Under the pieces are notes generated by a model. The model was not told the DNA's origin. It searched no databases and saw only the letters and a program-made list of their open reading frames with translations. From the IMG/VR virus record IMGVR_UViG_3300043173_000170, positions 1-41,069 of that record: a stretch of DNA of 41,069 nucleotides; one strand, given 5' to 3'. The DNA comes from a virus. Taxonomy: Duplodnaviria; Caudoviricetes. The position numbers and the translations under genes are program-made. Shown in pieces: positions 15,527 through 33,525 of the stretch. Within the stretch, counting starts at the first letter, position 1. Each line of letters starts with the position of its first letter.

Positions 15527-16132
15527 TTAACTATATAGCTTTCTACCTATATGTCCTGTTTTGGCATCCTTTAGGACTGATATATCAAATCCGCTTTCTA
15601 TTGCTCTACGGCAAAATGTTGTATCTTCACCCCAATACTTTCCGTCATAATTTAAAAAATCAAACAGACTAAAGGCGATCTCACCATTATCAGTTACATA
15701 TCTGGTATCTGGATTGTCTTGTTGCATCGTTTCTATTGCTTTCCTTGAAATCAACATACAACCTGCACCAACTGATACGGCTTGTAACCATCCTTCTTTC
15801 TCGTTTCCAGTTAAAGTCCCTGTATATTCAATTTTGTCGTTTTTCTTTCTGTAATTTAACGCACAAATATCATGCGTTGAATTTATTAATTTGAATACAT
15901 CAACAGCATTAAAGACAATATCGTTATCGAGAAATAATAACTTATCAAATCCGCTTGACATAAACTGCATTACAATTTCATTTCTTGCTTTTGGCAAGAT
16001 GCTGCATCCTGTGTGCATGTTGCACTCAACATCATAATCTGCAATGTGAAGCGCAAGCCTTAGTTTTATAAGGGAGCTGACAAATTCTGCATCAGCTCCC
16101 CCATAAAAAGGTACACCAATATAAAGTCTCAA
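15527..16132 (-). CDS. GT-A fold glycosyltransferase (GT2-like)
   Basis: IGVP, ARNEIV, LLFLDND (DxD), GAGCMLISR, GEDTTFC, GHIG. Confidence 0.88.
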   Translation of the reverse strand: MRLYIGVPFYGGADAEFVSSLIKLRLALHIADYDVECNMHTGCSILPKARNEIVMQFMSSGFDKLLFLDNDIVFNAVDVFKLINSTHDICALNYRKKNDKIEYTGTLTGNEKEGWLQAVSVGAGCMLISRKAIETMQQDNPDTRYVTDNGEIAFSLFDFLNYDGKYWGEDTTFCRRAIESGFDISVLKDAKTGHIGRKLYS

Positions 16133-16679: not shown

Positions 16680-17879
16680 TTAACCCCAAACTCGGCAAGC
16701 AAGTTCGCCGTATAGAGTTTTCCAACCGTACAATACGTCGATTCGACAAGGCATTGCATCGTTGTTGATGTCGTAATCACGAACAATACGCATACTGATT
16801 CCTTCATGCACCTGACGAGAAGCAAAGTCCACACCATTAGGCATAATCAGATCAGCAGTACCGAGGGTGAAAGCATCACGATGATAAGCCAAGTTCTGCG
16901 GATAGGCTGTAGAGGCTGTACCAACTTCAGTAATAACAGCGTTATCAAGAGCCAAAGCATCAACTGTCTGGAATGCACCGCTTGCACGAATTGCAGGAGA
17001 TACCGCTATTTCAGTAGTGTTTGTATAGCTCACAACAGTGAACTGCTGCAACTTACCAGTAGACTGACGATTCTGAGGATTAACTGAGTTCACAGCAGCA
17101 ATAGTAAGTACATCACCTACTGCATAAGTACCACTACCTGTTTTAAGGGTAAGCGTAGTGCTAGTTGCTGTATCACCAGAAGCAGCATGATCGCCATCAA
17201 TGACATGCGCGCCATCATAAGAGCCAGTAGTATGGACGTTGACATTCTGATCCATATAGATTTCCTTATAACCCAAAGTATCCATGCCCATCATACCTTT
17301 GCGATATTGAGCATCTAACTTACCGCTAGACTGAAACAGTCCTTTAAGACCATCAACCATTGCTGAGTTAGCCGCTGGATTTAAAGCAATACAACGCTCT
17401 CCGTCTCTAGGAGTGGCCTGATCGTCCATATATTCATTAGCATCCAGAAGAACAGCAGCAGTTGCTGGAGTTGTGCCAGGTGTGCCAACTGAACTAAACA
17501 CATCTTTGTATAAAGCAAGGCCATCAAGGTCAATCTTATTGGCAATCGTTGCCATTGCTGGTTTTAGAATACGACTTGAGAAATCGTCAATATCCATTGT
17601 CAGCTCTTTAGAGGTGAAGTTAACATCAACACCAATCTGATTATCCAAAGCCAAATCAACTTTAGTTTCAGTGTGATCCTGAACATCAAGAGTAGCGCCG
17701 GTACGAATAATGTAACGCGCTGGTTTGCGAATACGAAGGGTATCACCAATCTTTGCGCCATCATTAGCGAAAGAGGCATCATATTCTTTATTGGTATTTC
17801 GGGCAAAGCCGAGGTTGTTGACCAAAATACGCAAACCTTCTCGCGTAATCTGGTCAATGGTTAAGTTTGTGTTACTCAT
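16680..17879 (-). CDS. Major capsid protein (P22 coat family)
   Basis: MSNTNLTIDQITREGLRIL, KIGDTLRIRKP, NLAYHRDAF, CRIDVLYG. Confidence 0.95.
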   Translation of the reverse strand: MSNTNLTIDQITREGLRILVNNLGFARNTNKEYDASFANDGAKIGDTLRIRKPARYIIRTGATLDVQDHTETKVDLALDNQIGVDVNFTSKELTMDIDDFSSRILKPAMATIANKIDLDGLALYKDVFSSVGTPGTTPATAAVLLDANEYMDDQATPRDGERCIALNPAANSAMVDGLKGLFQSSGKLDAQYRKGMMGMDTLGYKEIYMDQNVNVHTTGSYDGAHVIDGDHAASGDTATSTTLTLKTGSGTYAVGDVLTIAAVNSVNPQNRQSTGKLQQFTVVSYTNTTEIAVSPAIRASGAFQTVDALALDNAVITEVGTASTAYPQNLAYHRDAFTLGTADLIMPNGVDFASRQVHEGISMRIVRDYDINNDAMPCRIDVLYGWKTLYGELACRVWG

Positions 17880-17934: not shown

Positions 17935-18660
17935 TTATCCGTATTGCTGTTTGTTCCGATAAGCTGCATATTCAGACATTGACATTTTATCAATATCAGT
18001 GGTTGCTGTGCTTGTCGTCTCAACCGGCTTAACGGGTTCAGGTGCTTTTGTTGTTCGAGGCTTAGGCATATTTACCTTAGCATCTATTTTTGCAAACTCT
18101 CTCGCCATACCAACATTGGACATTTGTTGTATGCGCTGTGCGTCTTGCGGGTTTTGTCCTAAGTAGTAAGCAATATCCGCAGCATTTTCAAATTCTTCCA
18201 GTACAGGCAACATTTCTGCTGAAGCCCACGCTTTCTGCTCAAAATCATCATACTTCGCACTTCCGGTTGCCGTTAAGTCATTGGCATAATCGTCATGCGG
18301 ATTATATGTTTCCTTTGGTTGCCCCTGACTGATTCCATGATCTACAGCCGCTTTAATATAGTCGTCGTAGTTATCATAGTTATCAGCAACAGGTGCTTTA
18401 GTTTCCGCTGCTTTGGTTTTGAGTTCCGCTAATTCAGCTTTTAACTGACGGTTCTCTTTCGATTGCTTACTCTGTTTTCGCCAGAGAGCATGTTGCTGGT
18501 TTTTCTGCTTTTCAGCTTCAATATCAGCCTCATCTTTTTCGACCTTGGTGGTCGCCTCTGTTTCTTGTGATTCAGTCGAGGTAACTGCTTCCGATGGAGG
18601 TGCGTTTTCAGTCGCCACTGTTTTAGTAGTTTCTATCTCTTCAGATACTTCGTCAACCAT
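17935..18660 (-). CDS. Scaffolding protein
   Basis: Acidic coiled coil, IAYYLGQNP, TKAPEPVKPV, MSMSEYAAYR C-terminus; directly upstream of coat. Confidence 0.88.
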   Translation of the reverse strand: MVDEVSEEIETTKTVATENAPPSEAVTSTESQETEATTKVEKDEADIEAEKQKNQQHALWRKQSKQSKENRQLKAELAELKTKAAETKAPVADNYDNYDDYIKAAVDHGISQGQPKETYNPHDDYANDLTATGSAKYDDFEQKAWASAEMLPVLEEFENAADIAYYLGQNPQDAQRIQQMSNVGMAREFAKIDAKVNMPKPRTTKAPEPVKPVETTSTATTDIDKMSMSEYAAYRNKQQYG

Positions 18661-18712: not shown

Positions 18713-18952
18713 TTACAATAATCCTTTCGTTAGTATGATATTCAAAAATTGAATAATATCAACATCTTCTGCTAATATTCTGTCTTTATGCAATTCAGCT
18801 ACAATTCCTTCCTTGTCTCTGACTAAATCCGCATAACTCTTATATTTATATTCATCACTACCACCACCTGTCCATGCACACCCATTATAACCATCAAACG
18901 TCCAACAGGTTTGGTCAAATGTTATCTGTGTTGAGTCCCATGTCCAACTCAT
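18713..18952 (-). CDS. Small putative virion protein with T(W/F)D repeats
   Basis: TWDSTQI-TFDQTCW-TFDG at the N-terminus. Confidence 0.55.
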   Translation of the reverse strand: MSWTWDSTQITFDQTCWTFDGYNGCAWTGGGSDEYKYKSYADLVRDKEGIVAELHKDRILAEDVDIIQFLNIILTKGLL

Positions 18953-19464
18953 TTAACCGTCCAGTATTTGATATAGAGTTTCGCCATCCCCCTGTCACCA
19001 CAACGTTCAGACTCATGTTCGGCTAGATTTGCTTTCATCCAGTTTCTTACACGTCTTTCAGATTTATCATCTGCCCAAAACTCAACAGCAATCCTTCCTT
19101 TTTTTACGAGTCTTGTTTTAGCTATTTCCAGTATAGCAATAGTGTTGTCAGCAGATGCTTCATCACCATACAGGGTGTCAATATAAATAAAACTGTACTT
19201 TCTGCTTCCGGGTTGTGTAATAAAGTTCTGCTCTAGTATTTTATGTCTAGTATCCAGCGCCTTCTGTGCTTTGTAATGAGCAACTGCTATTGGATTGATC
19301 TCGAAGGAGTCTACTGCTTTACACTTTGCATTGGATAATATACTGTTTGCTGCATGACCTTCACCTAATCCAACCTCAGCAACAGTCCCTTCAACCGCCG
19401 AACATCGCCCAACATGCTTATAGAAAGGCTTCATATCAATTATGTGGTCTGGCGTGTTACTCAT
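18949..19464 (-). CDS. Class I SAM-dependent methyltransferase
   Basis: VAEVGLGEG motif I, FEIN acidic end of strand 2, YSFIYID motif. Confidence 0.8.
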   Translation of the reverse strand: MSNTPDHIIDMKPFYKHVGRCSAVEGTVAEVGLGEGHAANSILSNAKCKAVDSFEINPIAVAHYKAQKALDTRHKILEQNFITQPGSRKYSFIYIDTLYGDEASADNTIAILEIAKTRLVKKGRIAVEFWADDKSERRVRNWMKANLAEHESERCGDRGMAKLYIKYWTVK

Positions 19465-20417
19465 GTTGTACTGTCCGTAATCAAGCCAAGTGCAGCTAAT
19501 TTAGTTAATAAATCCGCTAATGCGGCATTACCTCCTCTTGAACCCTGAATATCTGGAACACTAACGGGAGTAAATGTAGCAGCACTTACATCACCGGCAA
19601 ATATTCCGTCTTTCCATTTATTAGCAGAAGCCCCTAAATCAATAGCATTATTATTATCTATTGAATCTGAATCTGATATTGTATTTGATTTAATTGGAAC
19701 AATAGCGGCAACATTTAATCCGCCTAATCCAATCTCATTTGTGTCCGATGATAATTTTGATGTGCCAGAACTTGCTGTAATGCAAAATCGTGATGGCTTA
19801 ACAGTATCGTAGTACATATATACATATCTTTGTGTTCCACGACCATGTATTGCAAATCCTCCCCCACCATCTGCTTCAGATGAATTGTATTCCCCAACCT
19901 TTGCAGCGCTTGTTAAGAAATTCGGCGCAATTAATGAATATCCTATCGACCCATCGCCAGCAAAATAATTAATATCAATTAATGGATAAGTAGAATCCCC
20001 TTGATATAAATTGGTATAGTCAGCTGTATTTGTTAATGAAGATGAATCCACTGCTATCGTTCTTTGCGAATAAAACCCTTGGAATACATTGTCTAAACCC
20101 CAAAAAACATCAGAATTAGAGCCATAAGCGCGATTTCCTGTATACCCATTTCTTGCTGTAATACTAGCGCCTGAATAAACATCATATTGGGTATAGTTCA
20201 GAGCATGAGTTGCATCACCGATATGGTATGTTGCATCTGTAACAGGAAGAAGATTCTGGATACTCTGAGTTCCAGTAAAATCTATACTGCCATCGGCATT
20301 TATTTTTCCATTATATAACTCAGTGAAGTTATCATTTATAATATCGCCACCCGATCTGCCATGAGTTCCCGTTCCATCATCAGCAGCAGTTCCTAAATTA
20401 AGTATCTGTTTCGCCAT
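19461..20417 (-). CDS. Trimeric fibre-like virion protein with T4 gp9/gp10-like N-terminal motif
   Basis: MAKQILNLGTAADDGTG...INDNFTELY; IDLGASANKWKD; GSRGGNAALADLLTKLAALGLITDSTT. Confidence 0.7.
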   Translation of the reverse strand: MAKQILNLGTAADDGTGTHGRSGGDIINDNFTELYNGKINADGSIDFTGTQSIQNLLPVTDATYHIGDATHALNYTQYDVYSGASITARNGYTGNRAYGSNSDVFWGLDNVFQGFYSQRTIAVDSSSLTNTADYTNLYQGDSTYPLIDINYFAGDGSIGYSLIAPNFLTSAAKVGEYNSSEADGGGGFAIHGRGTQRYVYMYYDTVKPSRFCITASSGTSKLSSDTNEIGLGGLNVAAIVPIKSNTISDSDSIDNNNAIDLGASANKWKDGIFAGDVSAATFTPVSVPDIQGSRGGNAALADLLTKLAALGLITDSTT

Positions 20418-20895
20418 GCGCCTTTATTCCCGTTATATACCCTTCTTTATCACGAATGAACTTAAAATCCCAATCTGTTATCTTCTTATCTGATTCAATG
20501 CTTATATTTGAAATCTGAAAGGCTAAATCATCCAGAATGTCTTTCAGACTGTTTGTGTTTAATTCAACATCAGGTAATTTAATCTCAGGAATCTTTATGA
20601 TTGATATTTTACTTCCTAATCCTTCGATAACCTTTTTTATATCTAATGTATTCTTATTGACTGAATTAGCTAGAAACTTTAATCCATTATCTTGACTTAT
20701 ATCATGTAAATACTGTTTCTTCGCATCCCTTTGTTGTTTATCGGTTAATCCTTTGTATTCTTCGCTATTAACAACTTCAGACCATGATTTAATGATAATT
20801 CCTGGATACTGTAACTTTGCAGCACGCTTTTCATCTGCATTAAGACTTTTATAAGCCTTTGATTTAGTTACATCTAGCCATGATCTTAGTTCCAT
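20398..20895 (-). CDS. Hypothetical protein with tandem N-terminal repeat
   Basis: Two copies of SWxxVxxSxxYKxLxxxxxRxAKxQY; C-terminal WDFKFIRDKEGYI hairpin. Confidence 0.7.
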   Translation of the reverse strand: MELRSWLDVTKSKAYKSLNADEKRAAKLQYPGIIIKSWSEVVNSEEYKGLTDKQQRDAKKQYLHDISQDNGLKFLANSVNKNTLDIKKVIEGLGSKISIIKIPEIKLPDVELNTNSLKDILDDLAFQISNISIESDKKITDWDFKFIRDKEGYITGIKAHGETDT

Positions 20896-22733
20896 AACTT
20901 GCTGTGATCCTTATCGTTCTCCATACCGATAGATGCAAATTTATATTTAGCCTCTGCTTCAGTTGCAGCAGCTTTAGCAATAGTAGCTTCGGCCGTCTTA
21001 ATAGTAGCCTCTGACTTGATCTTATCCGCTTCTAATTCAGCCATCTGAACCTGTTGTTCAGCATTAGGTGGTGGTGGATTGTTTTGATCAGGAGGCGTAA
21101 GTCGTTTTGCAATCTCATCTGATGAATCAAAGTCAAAAGACTCAATAACCTTATCCATTGCCATTGAACGTAATTCAGGACTGACCTGTACAAGCTGCAT
21201 TAGTACATCTCTTTCTTCAATACGTCTTGTAGCATAAGAAGCCCCTGTAGTAACCTGAACAGAATATTTACCCAAAGTAAGATCGTTTAATATTGCAGGC
21301 TGCCCTTGCCCATCAGTAATGGCTTGATTGACGTTCATATCGACTTCACCATCTGGAGTCTGAAGTCTTAAAACACGCTCTCCATCATAAATTTCAGGAA
21401 TCATCGAAACAAGCACTCTACCAACTTGCTCAATAGAGATTGCCAAATTATCGTGATAGGCGAATGTTGCATTATCGCCCTGAGACTGTCTAGCTAAGAT
21501 GGCTTTACCGCTTGTCTCATTGCCCATAGCCCCTAATGAAGCATCAAAGATACCTGTAGTACCCTTTAAATCGTCAAGCGCCATAGCAGCTTCATTAACT
21601 GCTCCCATAGGAATACCAGCGGGGGATTGACGCATTGGTGGCGGCTGGCCAGGCTTATGATTGTAAATTAAAGCCGAGAAGTTCTTGGTATTGGCATTTC
21701 GCCACATGTCTTCATGACCTTCAACCTGTTCTGCTGTGGCAAGCCACGGTGATTTGGGCGCAACACCAACCGATTCGGCAGAAGCATTACGGTGGAAGTT
21801 ATAAGCGACTTGAGCATCTTTTGAATGACGGATAACGCCACGATAGTGAGTTTTTCCTTCTTCGTGAAGCTCTTTGCCGGCAACAAAAATTAGCGGTATG
21901 TATTTTCCAGCAAACCTTTTTGGTTCTTCTAAATAATCACTTCCTGAGATAAGTGAACGATAAATCTCATGTGAAATATCTTCTCTTTGATTAATTACGG
22001 TTAATTCACCGATATTTTTAATATCTTCAACAATGGAGTTATCACTGAGCAGATAAATGGTTGTTTTTACTTCCCTTTGTTCAAAATACTCTGCAATTCT
22101 TATTTTATCTCCAAACCAGTTCTCAAATGCCTCCCCTTTGGCTTCATTCAGAGGGACGACAGAAGCATTAGGGTATTTTTTCTTGAACTCATCTTTTTCA
22201 ATGTAAGAGGCGACAAAACACCACTTCATGTCGGATTTTGTCTGTTCTTTTGCATCAGGATCAGGATAAACAGAGAATTGATTGGTAATTCTCATTATTT
22301 TACAGTCTTGGTCAAAACTTCCTTCTAAATACTCTGTTCCGACACGTATCCAGCCCCAACCGCTACCTGCGGAATGATCTAAGGCAGTTTGGTATGCAAT
22401 GGTTGCTTTAGATTCTCTTTCAATTTTATCAATGAGCTTTTCGTACAAAGGCGCATACGGAGAATCATCAACGGCAGTAACTTTAATATCTATCTTATTT
22501 TGTCGTGCATCACCCGTAACCTGATCTATAAAGCCTTCACAGCGATTAAAAGTAAGGCATGGACGACTATCTTCATCTCTTTCTTTTTTAGCTTTCTCGT
22601 TCCATTGGTCGCCATTGCGAAAACGTATATCTTCCAATGACTTAGAACGATTTTCGTCCTCATCATTTAACGCCCTAGCGAACCTTTTACGAAAAGTAAG
22701 GAATTCTTCTGCTTGTTTGACAGATTTAGCCAT
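20886..22733 (-). CDS. Portal protein (P22-like)
   Basis: DIRFRNGDQW, RPCLTFN, KDAQVAYN, NETSGKAILARQ, IPEIYD, GKYSVQVTTG. Confidence 0.95.
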   Translation of the reverse strand: MAKSVKQAEEFLTFRKRFARALNDEDENRSKSLEDIRFRNGDQWNEKAKKERDEDSRPCLTFNRCEGFIDQVTGDARQNKIDIKVTAVDDSPYAPLYEKLIDKIERESKATIAYQTALDHSAGSGWGWIRVGTEYLEGSFDQDCKIMRITNQFSVYPDPDAKEQTKSDMKWCFVASYIEKDEFKKKYPNASVVPLNEAKGEAFENWFGDKIRIAEYFEQREVKTTIYLLSDNSIVEDIKNIGELTVINQREDISHEIYRSLISGSDYLEEPKRFAGKYIPLIFVAGKELHEEGKTHYRGVIRHSKDAQVAYNFHRNASAESVGVAPKSPWLATAEQVEGHEDMWRNANTKNFSALIYNHKPGQPPPMRQSPAGIPMGAVNEAAMALDDLKGTTGIFDASLGAMGNETSGKAILARQSQGDNATFAYHDNLAISIEQVGRVLVSMIPEIYDGERVLRLQTPDGEVDMNVNQAITDGQGQPAILNDLTLGKYSVQVTTGASYATRRIEERDVLMQLVQVSPELRSMAMDKVIESFDFDSSDEIAKRLTPPDQNNPPPPNAEQQVQMAELEADKIKSEATIKTAEATIAKAAATEAEAKYKFASIGMENDKDHSKLWN

Positions 22734-22735
22734 GT

Positions 22736-23230
22736 CTAACTCTTATTGTGGATTTTTCTTAGGTTGTATTCAAGAATCTTAAATGTGTCTCTTGCAACTT
22801 CTTCAGGCGTTAAAATTATGTTTGAGTGCCTATGGATGCCTATTGGGAATTTAGGATGCTCATATCCAGAAGGATACTGCTGCAATATTAAATCAGAATA
22901 ACTTACATTATTCTTTGATAACAATAAGTCTAATTTATTAACTAAATAATATTCAAGTCCATCTCTTTTCTTTTTATTTGTATATTCACCATCAAAAAAG
23001 TATTCATTAACCATGAACATCTCAAGATCAGTTCTTGCATCAACTTGCATAAAATATGCATCCCTACCTATATCATAATCAACTATCGTTCTTATATATT
23101 CAGAATCTAATGAATTTTTGCTTTCCTTAACTATAACTTTATCTGAAGTCTTTGTTTTTCCAATAGAAGTTCCTGTTATAGATATAGCCGAAGCACCGAG
23201 CAAGCCTTGTAAAAATAATCGTCTTTTCAT
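22736..23230 (-). CDS. Hypothetical protein with twin-arginine-like N-terminus and coat-N-arm-like C-terminus
   Basis: MKRRLFLQGLLG; SNIILTPEEVARDTFKILEYNL; ATGA overlap with terL. Confidence 0.75.
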   Translation of the reverse strand: MKRRLFLQGLLGASAISITGTSIGKTKTSDKVIVKESKNSLDSEYIRTIVDYDIGRDAYFMQVDARTDLEMFMVNEYFFDGEYTNKKKRDGLEYYLVNKLDLLLSKNNVSYSDLILQQYPSGYEHPKFPIGIHRHSNIILTPEEVARDTFKILEYNLRKIHNKS

Positions 23231-24762
23231 GATAACCAGTTACCTGTAGGATTCATGTTGATTTTCTTATGCTTTTTAATCAAAGTTACTGCATGACGTA
23301 TAGATTGAACGCCCTGTCTTGAGGCTGACATAGTATCATCATCTATATCTATAATCTTTCCATCTTTCATATGATATTGCCTGTATTCTTCCCAAAAATC
23401 ACCAACCGAATCCATTACATAAAATCTTCCGTCGCTCATTCTTGTAGACATTTCAGTAATCCCTGGCATTATCTGAATACCGCCTGTTCCCTCTAATTTA
23501 TCCTCACTTGGCGGATTTGTAAAATGACTTTTATCAGGATTATCAGCATTATAGAACATATTTACACCTGCTTTCAAATACTGGTCTTTTGTTGACTCGC
23601 CCTGTCCTGTGATTTTATTACCATCGTGAGGCCATATAACAGGAATAACATCTGAATTAGGCTTCATAATGATGTATGAGGCTATCTCTGGAATCTCCTT
23701 ACCAATTAAACGAAAACCATCATAAATATATATAATATCCATTTGCGGATCATAAGCAAGCCTTACAAATGCTGTTGGATGCGCTGTAGAGCTTAATCCA
23801 CCAAAGTCGATAGCATCAATGTATTTGAAGTATTCAGGAAATTCTTTTGATTCACACTTAAAGGATTCTTCTGCATAGGCAAAAACAAGTCCGCTACCAA
23901 GGACAGGAATACCCCTCATACGCATTTTCATCTGATAGGGAAGAATGTTTTTCTGTGCAGACAGAACCTTCTCTTTCGTTAAATGCCCTTTTCTTCCCTT
24001 TAGTGTATGAACAGTTTTAAACTCGAATTTCTCGCCTTCAACTTCTATCTCGAAGTCTTCACCAGCAACATCTTTCCACTCTGCTGTGTGCATACTCCAT
24101 TTATCCTGAACCATCTTAACGACCTTCGTCATGCCGTTTTCAGGCGTCCATGTAATCCTTATTCGTCCACCTGTTGCAATAGATGAACGCGAAGCCTGCT
24201 CTAAAATATCTTCAGGCGGTTCTTCATCTAAGTGAGTGACATCGGCTTTATGCCCCATCCATGTTGCTTTCCCCATTTCGTATGCAAGAAAGACGACTTT
24301 TGACCAGCCATCAAACTTACCATTGGTATGGTGTTTGATTCTGACGTTATAGAAGGCATCAGGAACGCCTCTTTTCTTCTGTATCTTGCCGATACATCTT
24401 TTAGGTATCCAACCAGTACCTAATTCAGCCTCCCACTCAATAGGATCACCAAATAGTTCCTTTTGAAGCAAGTCGCGTGTTTTGTCATTGTTAATACAGC
24501 CAGCAACTAAAACAATCGGATGATTGAACCTATGACCTTTGTAATTATCTGGATATTCCCCAGTTAAATCCATTGCATCATTAGCGCAACCAACATATGT
24601 TTTCCCTTGCTGATTTCCGCAGCGTAATCCTTTACTTTTTGATTTATCATCAATAAAATCCTGTTGCCATTGATATAAGTCAAGACTCCTTAGACGTTCA
24701 ACTTTAAGAAGATCACTCTTCTTCGATAAGTTCTTAAAAAGTTGTTCTCTGGCTGTACTCAT
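23227..24762 (-). CDS. terL: Terminase large subunit
   Basis: Walker A GNQQGKT, Walker B HLDEEPP, TWTP motif, nuclease AIDFG, WPHDG and DDTMSA. Confidence 0.95.
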   Translation of the reverse strand: MSTAREQLFKNLSKKSDLLKVERLRSLDLYQWQQDFIDDKSKSKGLRCGNQQGKTYVGCANDAMDLTGEYPDNYKGHRFNHPIVLVAGCINNDKTRDLLQKELFGDPIEWEAELGTGWIPKRCIGKIQKKRGVPDAFYNVRIKHHTNGKFDGWSKVVFLAYEMGKATWMGHKADVTHLDEEPPEDILEQASRSSIATGGRIRITWTPENGMTKVVKMVQDKWSMHTAEWKDVAGEDFEIEVEGEKFEFKTVHTLKGRKGHLTKEKVLSAQKNILPYQMKMRMRGIPVLGSGLVFAYAEESFKCESKEFPEYFKYIDAIDFGGLSSTAHPTAFVRLAYDPQMDIIYIYDGFRLIGKEIPEIASYIIMKPNSDVIPVIWPHDGNKITGQGESTKDQYLKAGVNMFYNADNPDKSHFTNPPSEDKLEGTGGIQIMPGITEMSTRMSDGRFYVMDSVGDFWEEYRQYHMKDGKIIDIDDDTMSASRQGVQSIRHAVTLIKKHKKINMNPTGNWLS

Positions 24763-24766
24763 TTGC

Positions 24767-25201
24767 TCATGCTTCTACATAATATCCGGCAATGGTGACG
24801 TTCACATCTGTGTCCGTTGCACTCGCCACTAATGAATTAGATGTATTAGTAATTAAAAAGAGTCCTGTTGGAGTTGCACGGTCGTTTTTAAACATATCAA
24901 GATTAACAATAGTATTTTTGTTTGTTGATAAGTCTGATGGATGCGCTTCGTATATAGTTAATGTTTCCCCAGTTGTCGCTGATCCAAATGTTTTTGATGA
25001 CGCAAGAAGAAGTCCAGTTATTACAAACATCATTCCAGATATAGCTGGTACAACCTCAAATGGCGTATCTGCCGTATCAACAAGAATGTAATAAGGCTTT
25101 GAATACTTTAGTGGTCTAACAAGTAATTCGCCATTCTTTGACACGATAGCTTTAAAGCCATCTGTATCTGCCCCCTCTATTTTAACTGCAAGCTCACCCA
25201 T
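24767..25201 (-). CDS. Putative virion beta-sandwich protein
   Basis: Beta-rich; ends VTIAGYYV; N-terminus resembles that of its neighbour. Confidence 0.5.
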   Translation of the reverse strand: MGELAVKIEGADTDGFKAIVSKNGELLVRPLKYSKPYYILVDTADTPFEVVPAISGMMFVITGLLLASSKTFGSATTGETLTIYEAHPSDLSTNKNTIVNLDMFKNDRATPTGLFLITNTSNSLVASATDTDVNVTIAGYYVEA

Positions 25202-25779
25202 TAATCTACGTGTTCAACTTCAACCAATGACCACGTAATTTTTACGCCATTAGTTGCATTTGCAGTTATTAATTTAACCGCCAAAGCTCCCCCAGGGGGA
25301 ACAATAATATTGGAAGTGGTTGATAAATGACTTGACTGATTATCAAGACTGCCAGCATGAAACATATTCCCCACTTTAGTTAGCCCTGTAAGACCTGTTG
25401 CTGATGCTGTATGATCCATACTGCCCAAAGGAACAGAAGATACTCCTATATTGCGAGAAGCCACAGCAGCAGGTAAAAAGGCTGTCTCATTTCCGATTGT
25501 TCCTACTGTTACCTCGTCAATATCTAAAATAGATGCAGCATCTAAACAATGCGACCTCATATCTGTCATGTGATAAAAGACCTGGCTTGTGTTTTGAAAC
25601 CATGCGATATAAACGCCTGCATTAGCAGTAACGCCATCTAAATCAATAGACCACACTTTGCCTGAGTTAGCATTAATGTGCCTATCTTCCTGCTCTGTCG
25701 ATGCCGAGACAATAGCCCTTCCTTGAAAGTCAACCTTCATACCATAGTCATTTACTCCTGCACTTTTAATGATTGTCAT
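25201..25779 (-). CDS. Putative virion beta-sandwich protein
   Basis: MKVDFQGRAIV, IIVPPGGALAV. Confidence 0.5.
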   Translation of the reverse strand: MTIIKSAGVNDYGMKVDFQGRAIVSASTEQEDRHINANSGKVWSIDLDGVTANAGVYIAWFQNTSQVFYHMTDMRSHCLDAASILDIDEVTVGTIGNETAFLPAAVASRNIGVSSVPLGSMDHTASATGLTGLTKVGNMFHAGSLDNQSSHLSTTSNIIVPPGGALAVKLITANATNGVKITWSLVEVEHVD

Positions 25780-26089
25780 CTTTTATTTCCTCATGTGTAA
25801 TTTCTTCGCCATGCCATTTGGACATGTATTTATTTAAAATCTTTAATTGCATATTAATTTCAATAAGCTCATCTTTTATTCTAAAATTTGATATTAATTG
25901 ATTATCTAATAAAGATTCAGCAAAAGATACAGGAAAAGGGTTGTCATCACTAATCTGTGACCCTCCCGTTTCAATTGACGCTGCTACTGTTACATCATCA
26001 ACCGATGAATTCTCGGCAGTCCCTTTAATGCGGAATACATCATAGATTCTTTGGGATATGTAATCACTAAGCGCCATAGAACCGTCCAT
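25766..26089 (-). CDS. Hypothetical protein (ISxxNPFPV motif plus coiled coil)
   Basis: Coupled to neighbours; C-terminal heptads. Confidence 0.55.
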   Translation of the reverse strand: MDGSMALSDYISQRIYDVFRIKGTAENSSVDDVTVAASIETGGSQISDDNPFPVSFAESLLDNQLISNFRIKDELIEINMQLKILNKYMSKWHGEEITHEEIKDDNH

Positions 26090-26909: not shown

Positions 26910-27335
26910 TTAACTTATTTTTACCTTAAATACTCTTACGCGACCACCTGTACAAGTGTCGCGTTTTTTAGCCATTCTAACAGCTTCAGCTGCAGTACAC
27001 CCTAAATCCATTGCTGTTAAAGCATGGTCGCAACCTGATCCAATAGAACAAATCATATTAGTAATATCAATCTTCCATATTTTATGTTCGCTCGAAGTGC
27101 CGCTTCTATAAATTCTTTTATTATCAACTAGAATAACATTTACGTCAGCATCGCTATCAGACTCATCAAAATATGCCTTTATAAATCTATCATAATCACT
27201 TGCGCAACCTGTAAAGAAAAATCTTACTTCATTTACTATTCGGCATTTATTATAATTATTGTCAACGATTGTTATATCACTTGTTAATCTTGAATCATAA
27301 GCAACAATTCCGTCTCGATAAGCAATAGTGGTCAT
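26910..27335 (-). CDS. HslV/proteasome-beta-like Ntn protease
   Basis: Likely start MTTIAYRDG..AYDSR (Thr nucleophile), SIGSG, AMDLG..A.EAV..A..RD..TGG; GGAG RBS at this start. Confidence 0.8.
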   Translation of the reverse strand: MTTIAYRDGIVAYDSRLTSDITIVDNNYNKCRIVNEVRFFFTGCASDYDRFIKAYFDESDSDADVNVILVDNKRIYRSGTSSEHKIWKIDITNMICSIGSGCDHALTAMDLGCTAAEAVRMAKKRDTCTGGRVRVFKVKIS

Positions 27336-27637
27336 TAAATTAACTCCAATTTGGTTAAAATATCCCGTATCCACTGAGGATCAATCCCAATAATAACAGC
27401 ATGGGGCATATCCGTTCTTAAATAAGCTAATCCAGTCTTTCTCTTGGTTTCATTTGGATCATAGAACCTCCCTGCTTTCTTGTTAAATCGCCTCTCCACA
27501 GGCAAAAAGGCATCAGATATAGCCTTATTAACAACAGCAAACATTAATCTCTCTTCTGCTGAATCCCCTACCTGTGGCAGGATCTTCTTAATCGCCAGTT
27601 TCTTTCTTTCCAGTAAATTCAGTTCTGATGTGTTCAT
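27335..27637 (-). CDS. Hypothetical helical protein
   Basis: EERLMFAVVNKAISDA...GIDPQWIR pattern recalled from phage proteins. Confidence 0.65.
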   Translation of the reverse strand: MNTSELNLLERKKLAIKKILPQVGDSAEERLMFAVVNKAISDAFLPVERRFNKKAGRFYDPNETKRKTGLAYLRTDMPHAVIIGIDPQWIRDILTKLELI

Positions 27638-32781: not shown

Positions 32782-33525
32782 TTAATATTCCTGTTCTGCC
32801 AGTTCACAAAATATCCCGCATTGAATGTCAATAGTATCGTCCATCGGCTTAAAGTAGTCAGGTATTTCTGTTAGCTTGCATCGGTAATCAATCTTACCCT
32901 TTGTGTACTTTATTAGTCGAACATTAAAACGAGATTCAATTTCCGCCATTCGCTCAAATCTTTCAGGAAAATCTTGTTTTATCTTTAAAAAATAAGCAGG
33001 ACTCTGAGCTTTTACACACGGCAAACAATTATTATTTTTATAGCCGAGTTTATAAACCGCAGGTAGCTCAATCCCAGCATCTTGTATCATTGCCAGGCAA
33101 TCAGATTTAGTCAGCCCTGAGTCTATTAATGGCGTGATAATATTTACTTCATTGTTAGCATCTATAAATAGATCTACCCTGCTCTGTTCCTCACACGTAT
33201 AGCCAAAAACCTGTATATCATCTGGTAGCTGCGACTCTATCCGCATTTTCTTTTTAAGCTCTAGCGTACAGGGCGCACCACCTATACCGGATAAATACCT
33301 TCTTTTCTCAAATACCTTATAAATTGATCTGTCAAATTTATCATTTCCGATTATTTCTATTTCCTGATTAAACCATTTTTCACAATCACGCAAGAATCGA
33401 ATATTATCCTCATGCTCTTCTCTAACTTGGCAATATTTAATAACAACATCGTTATCAATCAATGCTAATTTTGTAGCAACGGCACTTGCCGCTCCACAAC
33501 TAAACCATGAAACCATTCTACTCAT
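32782..33525 (-). CDS. PAPS-reductase-like (PP-loop/adenine nucleotide alpha-hydrolase) protein
   Basis: SWFSCGAASAVA PP-loop variant, CTLELKK, YKLGYKNNNCLPCVK, CGIFCE. Confidence 0.8.
   Translation of the reverse strand: MSRMVSWFSCGAASAVATKLALIDNDVVIKYCQVREEHEDNIRFLRDCEKWFNQEIEIIGNDKFDRSIYKVFEKRRYLSGIGGAPCTLELKKKMRIESQLPDDIQVFGYTCEEQSRVDLFIDANNEVNIITPLIDSGLTKSDCLAMIQDAGIELPAVYKLGYKNNNCLPCVKAQSPAYFLKIKQDFPERFERMAEIESRFNVRLIKYTKGKIDYRCKLTEIPDYFKPMDDTIDIQCGIFCELAEQEY

Follow-up and report, generated by a model that had tools for sequence, protein, structure and literature searches.

The 164-aa protein studied here is encoded between the large terminase (terL) and portal genes of a tailed virus. 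By motif and profile matches, this intact and optional gene belongs to a large phage family that joins an RRxFL leader to a copy of a coat N-terminal arm (N-arm) in one short open reading frame (ORF). Profile comparisons indicate that residues 136–157 are homologous to the N-arm helix of P22-type coats. The protein probably has a permuted two-piece layout, with a copy of the coat C-terminal hairpin first and the N-arm last. As judged from the loci compared, the arm is not the sole cargo of this type of leader, behind which pieces from at least four capsid families occur. Tentatively, and with more doubt than confidence, we favor the reading that the product is a capsid-shaped bait for host proteins recognizing P22-type coats, drawn to the twin-arginine translocation (Tat) machinery.

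The gene, its neighbors and its leader

The window, i.e., the whole stretch of DNA analyzed, is a complete virus record of 41,069 bases with direct terminal repeats. The late genes are located on the minus strand in the order terL, leader-plus-coat-piece gene, portal, scaffold and coat (Table 1). Four additional ORFs (18713–20895, minus strand) separate portal from scaffold and encode an AT-rich 165-aa protein, a protein with a T4 gp9/10-like N-terminus, a methyltransferase-like protein and a 79-aa protein. Three ORFs without family assignment (24767–26089, minus strand) are found immediately upstream of terL; no small terminase subunit was identified in the window. Other minus-strand genes encode an HslV-family peptidase (26910–27374), a PAPS-reductase-like protein (32782–33525) and a glycosyltransferase-like protein (15527–16132). 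The structure model of the coat (pLDDT 83) contains an N-arm helix (residues 8–22), a spine helix (97–126) and C-terminal strands (361–367 and 378–388), and the top Foldseek matches of this model are the coats of Sf6, P22 and CUS-3 (TM ~0.7).

Table 1. Positions of the leader-plus-coat-piece gene, its parts and the neighboring late genes in the window.
Feature	Position	Strand	Remarks
Leader-plus-coat-piece gene, 164 aa	22736..23230	-	Start overlaps terL stop (ATGA); stop 2 nt before portal start
Twin-arginine-type leader, residues 1–25	23156..23230	-	Residues 1–15 identical to L034 protein; c-region without the proline of the family
Probable copy of coat C-terminal beta-hairpin, residues 45–64 (coat 362–381)	23039..23098	-	Score 42; weaker than arm
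Middle part, residues 67–135	22826..23032	-	No relative found
Diverged copy of P22-type coat N-arm helix, residues 136–157	22760..22825	-	Pairwise alignment, family and coat profiles
Terminase large subunit (terL)	23227..24762	-	Upstream neighbor; Pfam Terminase_6N, PHROGs
P22-like portal	20886..22733	-	Downstream neighbor; PF16510, E 2.7e-162
Head scaffolding protein	17935..18660	-	phrog_8865, E 6.6e-21
P22-type coat	16680..17879	-	PF11651

A preliminary description of this DNA had reported the 164-aa ORF between terL and portal and had called it AT-richer than its neighbors, and we found both to be the case. The GC content is 30.3%, compared to 38.7% for terL, 40.7% for portal and 39.0% for the window; that of ORF 20398–20895 is almost equally low (31.5%). 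A chance origin of the ORF is ruled out, as none of 20,000 base shuffles remained open. An assembly chimera of the terL end, the gene and the portal start is likewise ruled out by a single contig (depth ~103) that covers 22413–24300 without differences and stems from the single run found to contain the stretch, a marine sediment metagenome that is possibly the window's own source and hence not independent; no RNA dataset containing it was listed. The protein has no match in Pfam, PHROGs or NCBIfam, and a direct homologue search with the whole protein returned the protein itself alone, with tblastn matches at chance level. Its Atlas matches all score below 0.9 and serve as leads only (the Atlas model has a pLDDT of 0.37). 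The full HK97/P22 coat fold of about 400 residues is absent from the protein, in which two short windows alone match coat profiles.

The sole 11/12 match to a sigma-70-like site in the window lies inside terL, 318 bases ahead of the gene (23548–23577, minus strand). It was discarded as promoter evidence, since such a site arises in 181 of 3,000 terL recodings and is missing from L011 and L034. Translation would be coupled to that of terL via the ATGA overlap, so that the product would be made at the start of late-gene expression, before the coat. Scans of 42 and then 24 further ORFs of the window, with one ORF omitted, revealed neither an integrase nor a repressor, so that expression during lytic growth is the simplest reading.

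The N-terminus (M-K-R-R-L-F-L-Q) had been put forward as a twin-arginine signal. KRRLFLQ does fit R-R-x-F-L, and the n-region motif, given as R-R-x-hydrophobic-hydrophobic in PMC10924467, is present. However, the protein passes neither of the curated Tat models, TIGR01409 and PF10518 (TAT_signal). When 29 proteins of this kind were compared with TIGR01409, 12 matched at E<1 and three scored above the cut-off; P0008 passes PF10518. Like Tat signal peptides, the leader has the motif near its start. The stretch that follows may pass for a weakly hydrophobic h-region (mean hydropathy of residues 6–19 of 1.44, against a family mean of 1.90), and the majority of the family has a basic c-region and a V-x-A-like site, which might serve as a signal peptidase site. 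In this copy the c-region lacks the proline and retains lysine 25. Unlike in Tat signal peptides, conservation of the family leader extends past the predicted cut (S-L-M), and no compact fold is predicted for the passenger: the structure model of one family member consists of separate helices (pTM 0.35). The leaders of the 164-aa gene and of L034 are identical over the first 23 bases, and their later differences are synonymous.

Coat pieces in the protein

According to the preliminary description, residues 136–157 align without gaps to coat residues 2–23 with nine of 22 identical residues and six conservative pairs. The ungapped alignment and its identities were recovered, whereas the conservative pairs number five (BLOSUM62-positive). 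BLASTP does not report this pair of segments. Against coat residues 1–30, a range chosen post hoc, the arm score is reached by 15 of 20,000 shuffles. Against the whole coat, the top alignment is another segment (residues 45–64 with coat 362–381), whose score 211 of 5,000 shuffles reach, and when the protein is compared with every gene on the same strand of the window, significance is lost (p 0.46). The arm is the best non-coat match among 610 stop-to-stop frames of the window. Significance against shuffled sequence is thus weak for the pairwise alignment and becomes clear with profiles. A profile of 62 coat arms is matched at the arm score by three of 5,000 shuffles, and a profile of 104 family members, from which the 164-aa protein was excluded, by none of 10,000; with the latter profile, the coat alone outscores the 164-aa protein over 803 window frames. 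The arm-like segment is also conserved in homologues (L034 and the family members described below). A search for short relatives of coat residues 1–42 returned one truncated coat.

The arm had been considered a mimic of the phage's own coat, and this part of the earlier account is not supported. The own coat scores 34, compared to a median of 37 and a maximum of 52 for 62 P22-type arms, among which it ranks 39th. Over 21 residues, the arm scores 46 with P0003, 52 with P0005 and 46 with P0006, all of them sister proteins, and 36 with the own coat. Because the sister proteins beat the own coat, we conclude that the gene descends from an old mini-protein lineage and not from a fresh copy of this coat. 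In other loci with both genes, the rank of the own coat for the cargo is 1/72 (L050, a long cargo), 34/72 (L102), 6/62 (L203) and 19/89 (L225). The arm core carries three substitutions (E to D, A to T and L to F) at positions conserved in 94, 89 and 86% of the family, values inflated by the selection of the sequences with the family profile, and the copy ends at coat position 23, short of the later arm residues of the family. By these substitutions, this copy is a drifted member, among the more diverged of the family, and may be decaying. A complex prediction of coat residues 27–399 with residues 128–164 of the protein gave no answer (score 0.01, mark 0.32) and is evidence neither way.

A better match to foreign coats than to the own one would suit a dominant-negative poison, in which the pieces bind the coat or scaffold of rival P22-type phages and are drawn by the leader to the membrane or out of the cell interior. 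The P22 N-arm is described as a scaffold docking site (PMC9965877), interference genes such as those of the Tai systems are reported upstream of packaging modules (PMC11364771), and the capsid homologue Ccm is described as blocking helper phages (PMC5052747). We nonetheless consider a poison improbable. The gene directly adjoins its neighbors inside the late operon, the ORFs scanned include no integrase, and the single good upstream match to a sigma-70-like site does not exceed chance expectation. As the own coat scores near the median, self-poisoning would be expected, and the L050 cargo matches its own coat best of all. Expression during the phage's own lytic growth suits self-protection better than a poison.

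The segment that tops the whole-coat comparison probably represents a piece of the coat C-terminal hairpin. Its score against a hairpin profile is reached by 20 of 5,000 shuffles (p ~0.004), the hairpin and arm scores jointly by seven of 3,000, and the scores of short sliding profiles at this segment by 32–37 of 1,000. The reading is plausible because family members carry coat pieces ahead of the arm. Seven of the best 150 family matches have a D-[VMT]-L-Y-G piece of the hairpin strand in this place, P0154, P0176 and the sister protein P0006 have a spine-helix piece there, and L211 carries the hairpin alone behind its leader. A third piece (spine helix) at residues 96–102 was suggested by BLAST and rejected, as it has no profile support.

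The C-terminal segment thus corresponds to the helix of the P22-type coat N-arm (PF11651; P22 gp5 residues 2–30; Sf6 5L35, P22 8I1V). Unlike that arm, it is a free-standing diverged copy at the C-terminal end of a protein without coat fold, located behind an export-type leader and after, not before, the probable C-terminal hairpin piece.

A family with varied cargo and position

Scanning with the whole protein led to a single further virus record, L034, in which an ORF of 88 aa immediately precedes a terL closely related to the one here. The L034 protein has residues 1–15 in common with the 164-aa protein, an unrelated middle and a clearer arm (31 bits, E 7.6e-8); the record ends just after the portal, so that the lack of a P22-type coat in it carries no weight. 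The terL of L034 (10310–12676) contains a long insertion in its N-terminal part with an HNH-like ORF on the opposite strand, which by eye looks like an intein or mobile insertion.

A profile of the L034 protein and coat arms gave 262 matches among 382 short candidates. Among the 120 matches listed, RRxF precedes an ITREAL-type arm in 26, whereas most others are coat fragments cut at contig ends. From 1.84 billion sequences, a 29-row family profile retrieved 3,393 representatives at E≤0.001, of which 429 reached E≤1e-10, counts that may include coats and ordinary Tat proteins. A cluster look-up of ten members returned no names. The best 150 of these matches, all between 70 and 164 aa, were examined. 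RRxF is present in 144 of the 150, with a P..[VIA][RK][AVS] c-region in 105 of these 144, and the arm core T, I, T, E, A, L is kept at 82–94%, again in sequences selected by the profile itself. A DNA pattern scan gave 72 loci with family members in just five (L034, L132, L135, L168 and L193); most of the remaining loci represent one unrelated family, which we take to be a T4-type clamp-loader subunit. A scan of GTDB with a narrow pattern gave 30 loci; the 22 in-frame translations listed are cellular Tat-type proteins or short chance frames without arm. When P0028 and P0135 were compared by tblastn with 50,697 phage records, none of the matches extended over 80% of the query, and the family was not found in the collection of cultured phages. 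Cultured phages with the coat family of this virus include Thalassomonas phage BA3 and Shewanella phage X14. The literature searched, with most subscription papers outside its scope, contained no paper describing an export-type leader fused to capsid pieces. The design as a family without described function is therefore apparently new, as far as this literature goes.

Searching with the leader only, we found 60 virus loci, four of which have the arm. Other loci carry different parts of P22-type coats, specifically the spine helix (L218), the hairpin (L211) and a piece of the I-domain (L225). Six of 53 leader proteins match major-head PHROGs of five families (283, 212, 1357, 9953 and 3231), four of them at E≤0.003. 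When compared with the genes of their own locus, 13 of 58 leader proteins give a match at p<0.05 where about three are expected (60 shuffles each), and the partners in L204, L233 and L239 were confirmed as capsids. The N-arm is the commonest identified cargo. For 47 of the 53 no major-head match was found and for 45 of the 58 no own-locus match, the 164-aa protein being among the latter. Since arm, spine helix, C-terminal strand and I-domain all occur as cargo, the target is not one assembly interface.

Leaders of the MKRRLFLQ type also precede arm-less tails in P0010–P0012 and P0014, and likewise in L116 (912–1157). The tails of P0010–P0012 may resemble another capsid N-arm and the L130 cargo HK97-type capsid motifs, but neither likeness found support in the searches made. 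The P0014 tail matches window ORF 20398–20895 at E 3.3 only. Leader genes are also present in records of 226 kb (L220) and 322 kb (L221/L228), in L220 next to a nuclear shell protein gene (phrog_4795), and L223 has two leader genes in tandem.

The arm-less tails, together with the many cargos for which no origin was identified, speak for the leader as the working part, which would occupy or block TatBC or a signal-peptide chaperone while the coat pieces are passengers acquired from nearby genes and, in this copy, are decaying. The leader is the best-kept part of the protein (15 of 15 residues shared with L034), and consensus residues have been lost from this arm. We regard this as unlikely, as P0003, P0005 and P0006 differ in their linkers but have all retained the arm, its core persists across hundreds of clusters below 50% identity, and enrichment in capsid pieces is seen even at replication-gene loci (L202, L211 and L245).

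The position of the gene is equally varied. It lies between terL and portal here, in L050 and in L102. In five close relatives that show this junction (L002, L003, L005, L006 and L011), terL abuts portal with no gene between. A leader-arm gene directly precedes portal in two of 46 other distinct loci with portal and coat, which were partly picked by the motif, and in none of 33 loci found by the coat alone, many of which are short. Among 44 leader loci whose long neighbors were scanned (75 of 79 ORFs), 21 are beside terL, portal or capsid genes, 15 are in replication or DNA-metabolism regions, three are beside other genes and five gave no match. Leader genes with capsid pieces are found among the replication genes in the same three loci, L202, L211 and L245.

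An optional gene with relatives in replication regions argues against a virion-building role. The preliminary description had proposed that the arm loads cargo into procapsids or tethers assembly at the membrane; both fit poorly with a gene that is optional, with its varied cargo and with the 15 of 44 loci among replication genes. More broadly, we judge it distinctly unlikely that the protein modulates the phage's own head assembly, with the arm titrating scaffold or tethering it at the membrane, or loading the 164-aa protein into procapsids. Such a role would agree with the terL–portal position, with the N-arm as commonest identified cargo and with the acidic arm position kept in 94% of the best 150 matches (selected by the profile), as P22 scaffold is described as binding acidic N-arm residues (PMC9965877). 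It is at odds with the closest relatives, which lack the gene, with an arm that is not tuned to the own coat, with the replication-region loci, and with the other cargos, which are not scaffold sites.

A possible bait and its relation to known systems

The preliminary description had listed a decoy for a capsid-sensing defense and a poison for competing phages among its options, and the decoy is the one that we favor. In the comparison with L034, both ends of the protein are conserved and the middle is not. The leader, by virtue of its RR motif, would engage TatBC. The coat pieces would bind a capsid-sensing defense protein or another coat-recognizing host factor, and the bound host protein would then be retained at the membrane or leave the cell by hitchhiker export. 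The drifted arm of this copy may have been retuned to another target or may be losing its function. Several defenses are described as sensing major capsid proteins (PMC11364771), and export by Tat of untagged partners as hitchhikers is reported (PMC10924467). Bait of this kind fits the varied cargo, the copies in replication regions, the lack of tuning to the own coat, the lack of a lysogeny sign among the ORFs scanned and the lack of a supported separate promoter. Against it, capsid triggers in one screen are reported to share an oligomerization requirement (PMC13728456), which short pieces may fail to meet, or the pieces may trigger the sensor instead of blocking it. No sensor binding a coat N-arm was identified. 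In addition, most cargos of the leader-only scan have no identified origin, and the arm and c-region of this copy are altered.

More generally, the family might be modular in the sense that a single export tag is combined with interchangeable pieces of capsids and other virion proteins and the Tat machinery of the host removes their recognizers, i.e., a decoy-and-export counter-defense. This gene would then be a two-piece version with hairpin and N-arm permuted, and the cargos would map the epitopes read by bacterial immune sensors. We hold this wider scheme to be rather unlikely.

The combination of a constant leader with variable cargo in an accessory position could also point to a sensor with integrated bait, in which the coat piece senses the structural protein of an invader and, by clustering the leader, creates an effector that damages the membrane or jams Tat, so that the infection is aborted. 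This is very unlikely in our view, as coupling to the late operon would expose the product to the phage's own coat and there is no sign of a lysogenic state among the ORFs scanned.

Among known systems, T7 Ocr is closest in its way of working to the proposed bait, being described as a mimic that absorbs a defense protein, but it mimics DNA (PMC12409349). Ccm of the SaPIs is likewise an accessory capsid-derived protein, but is described as redirecting assembly to small capsids for a satellite (PMC5052747), whereas this gene combines short coat pieces with a leader and belongs to a phage that itself encodes terminase, portal, scaffold and coat. The Tai and anti-Tai genes of prophages and satellites are also small accessory genes by the packaging module aimed at virion parts. 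Tai, however, blocks tail formation, and the description given in PMC11364771, on which this comparison is based, mentions no capsid copy or Tat leader. A decoy made of capsid pieces with a membrane-targeting leader was not found in the literature searched. If the pieces are bait, they would list capsid surfaces recognized by hosts or rival phages and could be used as probes to fish for new sensors; if they are poisons, they would be natural peptide inhibitors of capsid assembly. Either way, they would represent a phage use of the Tat pathway not found described in the literature searched, and this copy would add the permuted two-piece layout to the family.

Some coat genes in these searches have unusual structures of their own. 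P0027, P0032, P0037, P0056, P0082 and P0087 have coat N-termini behind a hydrophobic, membrane-helix-like leader without RR; P0082 resembles a genuine coat truncated by the end of its contig, and a membrane leader may therefore be present in some coats. In many coat ORFs, the sequence ends or changes abruptly behind N-R-Q, near residue 32 (P0023, P0034, P0040, P0046, P0063, P0064, P0080, P0088, P0094, P0095 and others). Several of these ORFs are on long contigs, and the pattern suggests that their coat genes share a site of insertion, such as that of an intron or similar element. Finally, L014 encodes a 233-aa protein between its terminase genes (1093–1794) with a DUF2158 (YodC-like) head followed by a shortened coat, which scores 48 bits with the coat profile and in which the arm, the spine helix and the C-terminal strands are preserved; it thus represents a mini-coat with a different head.
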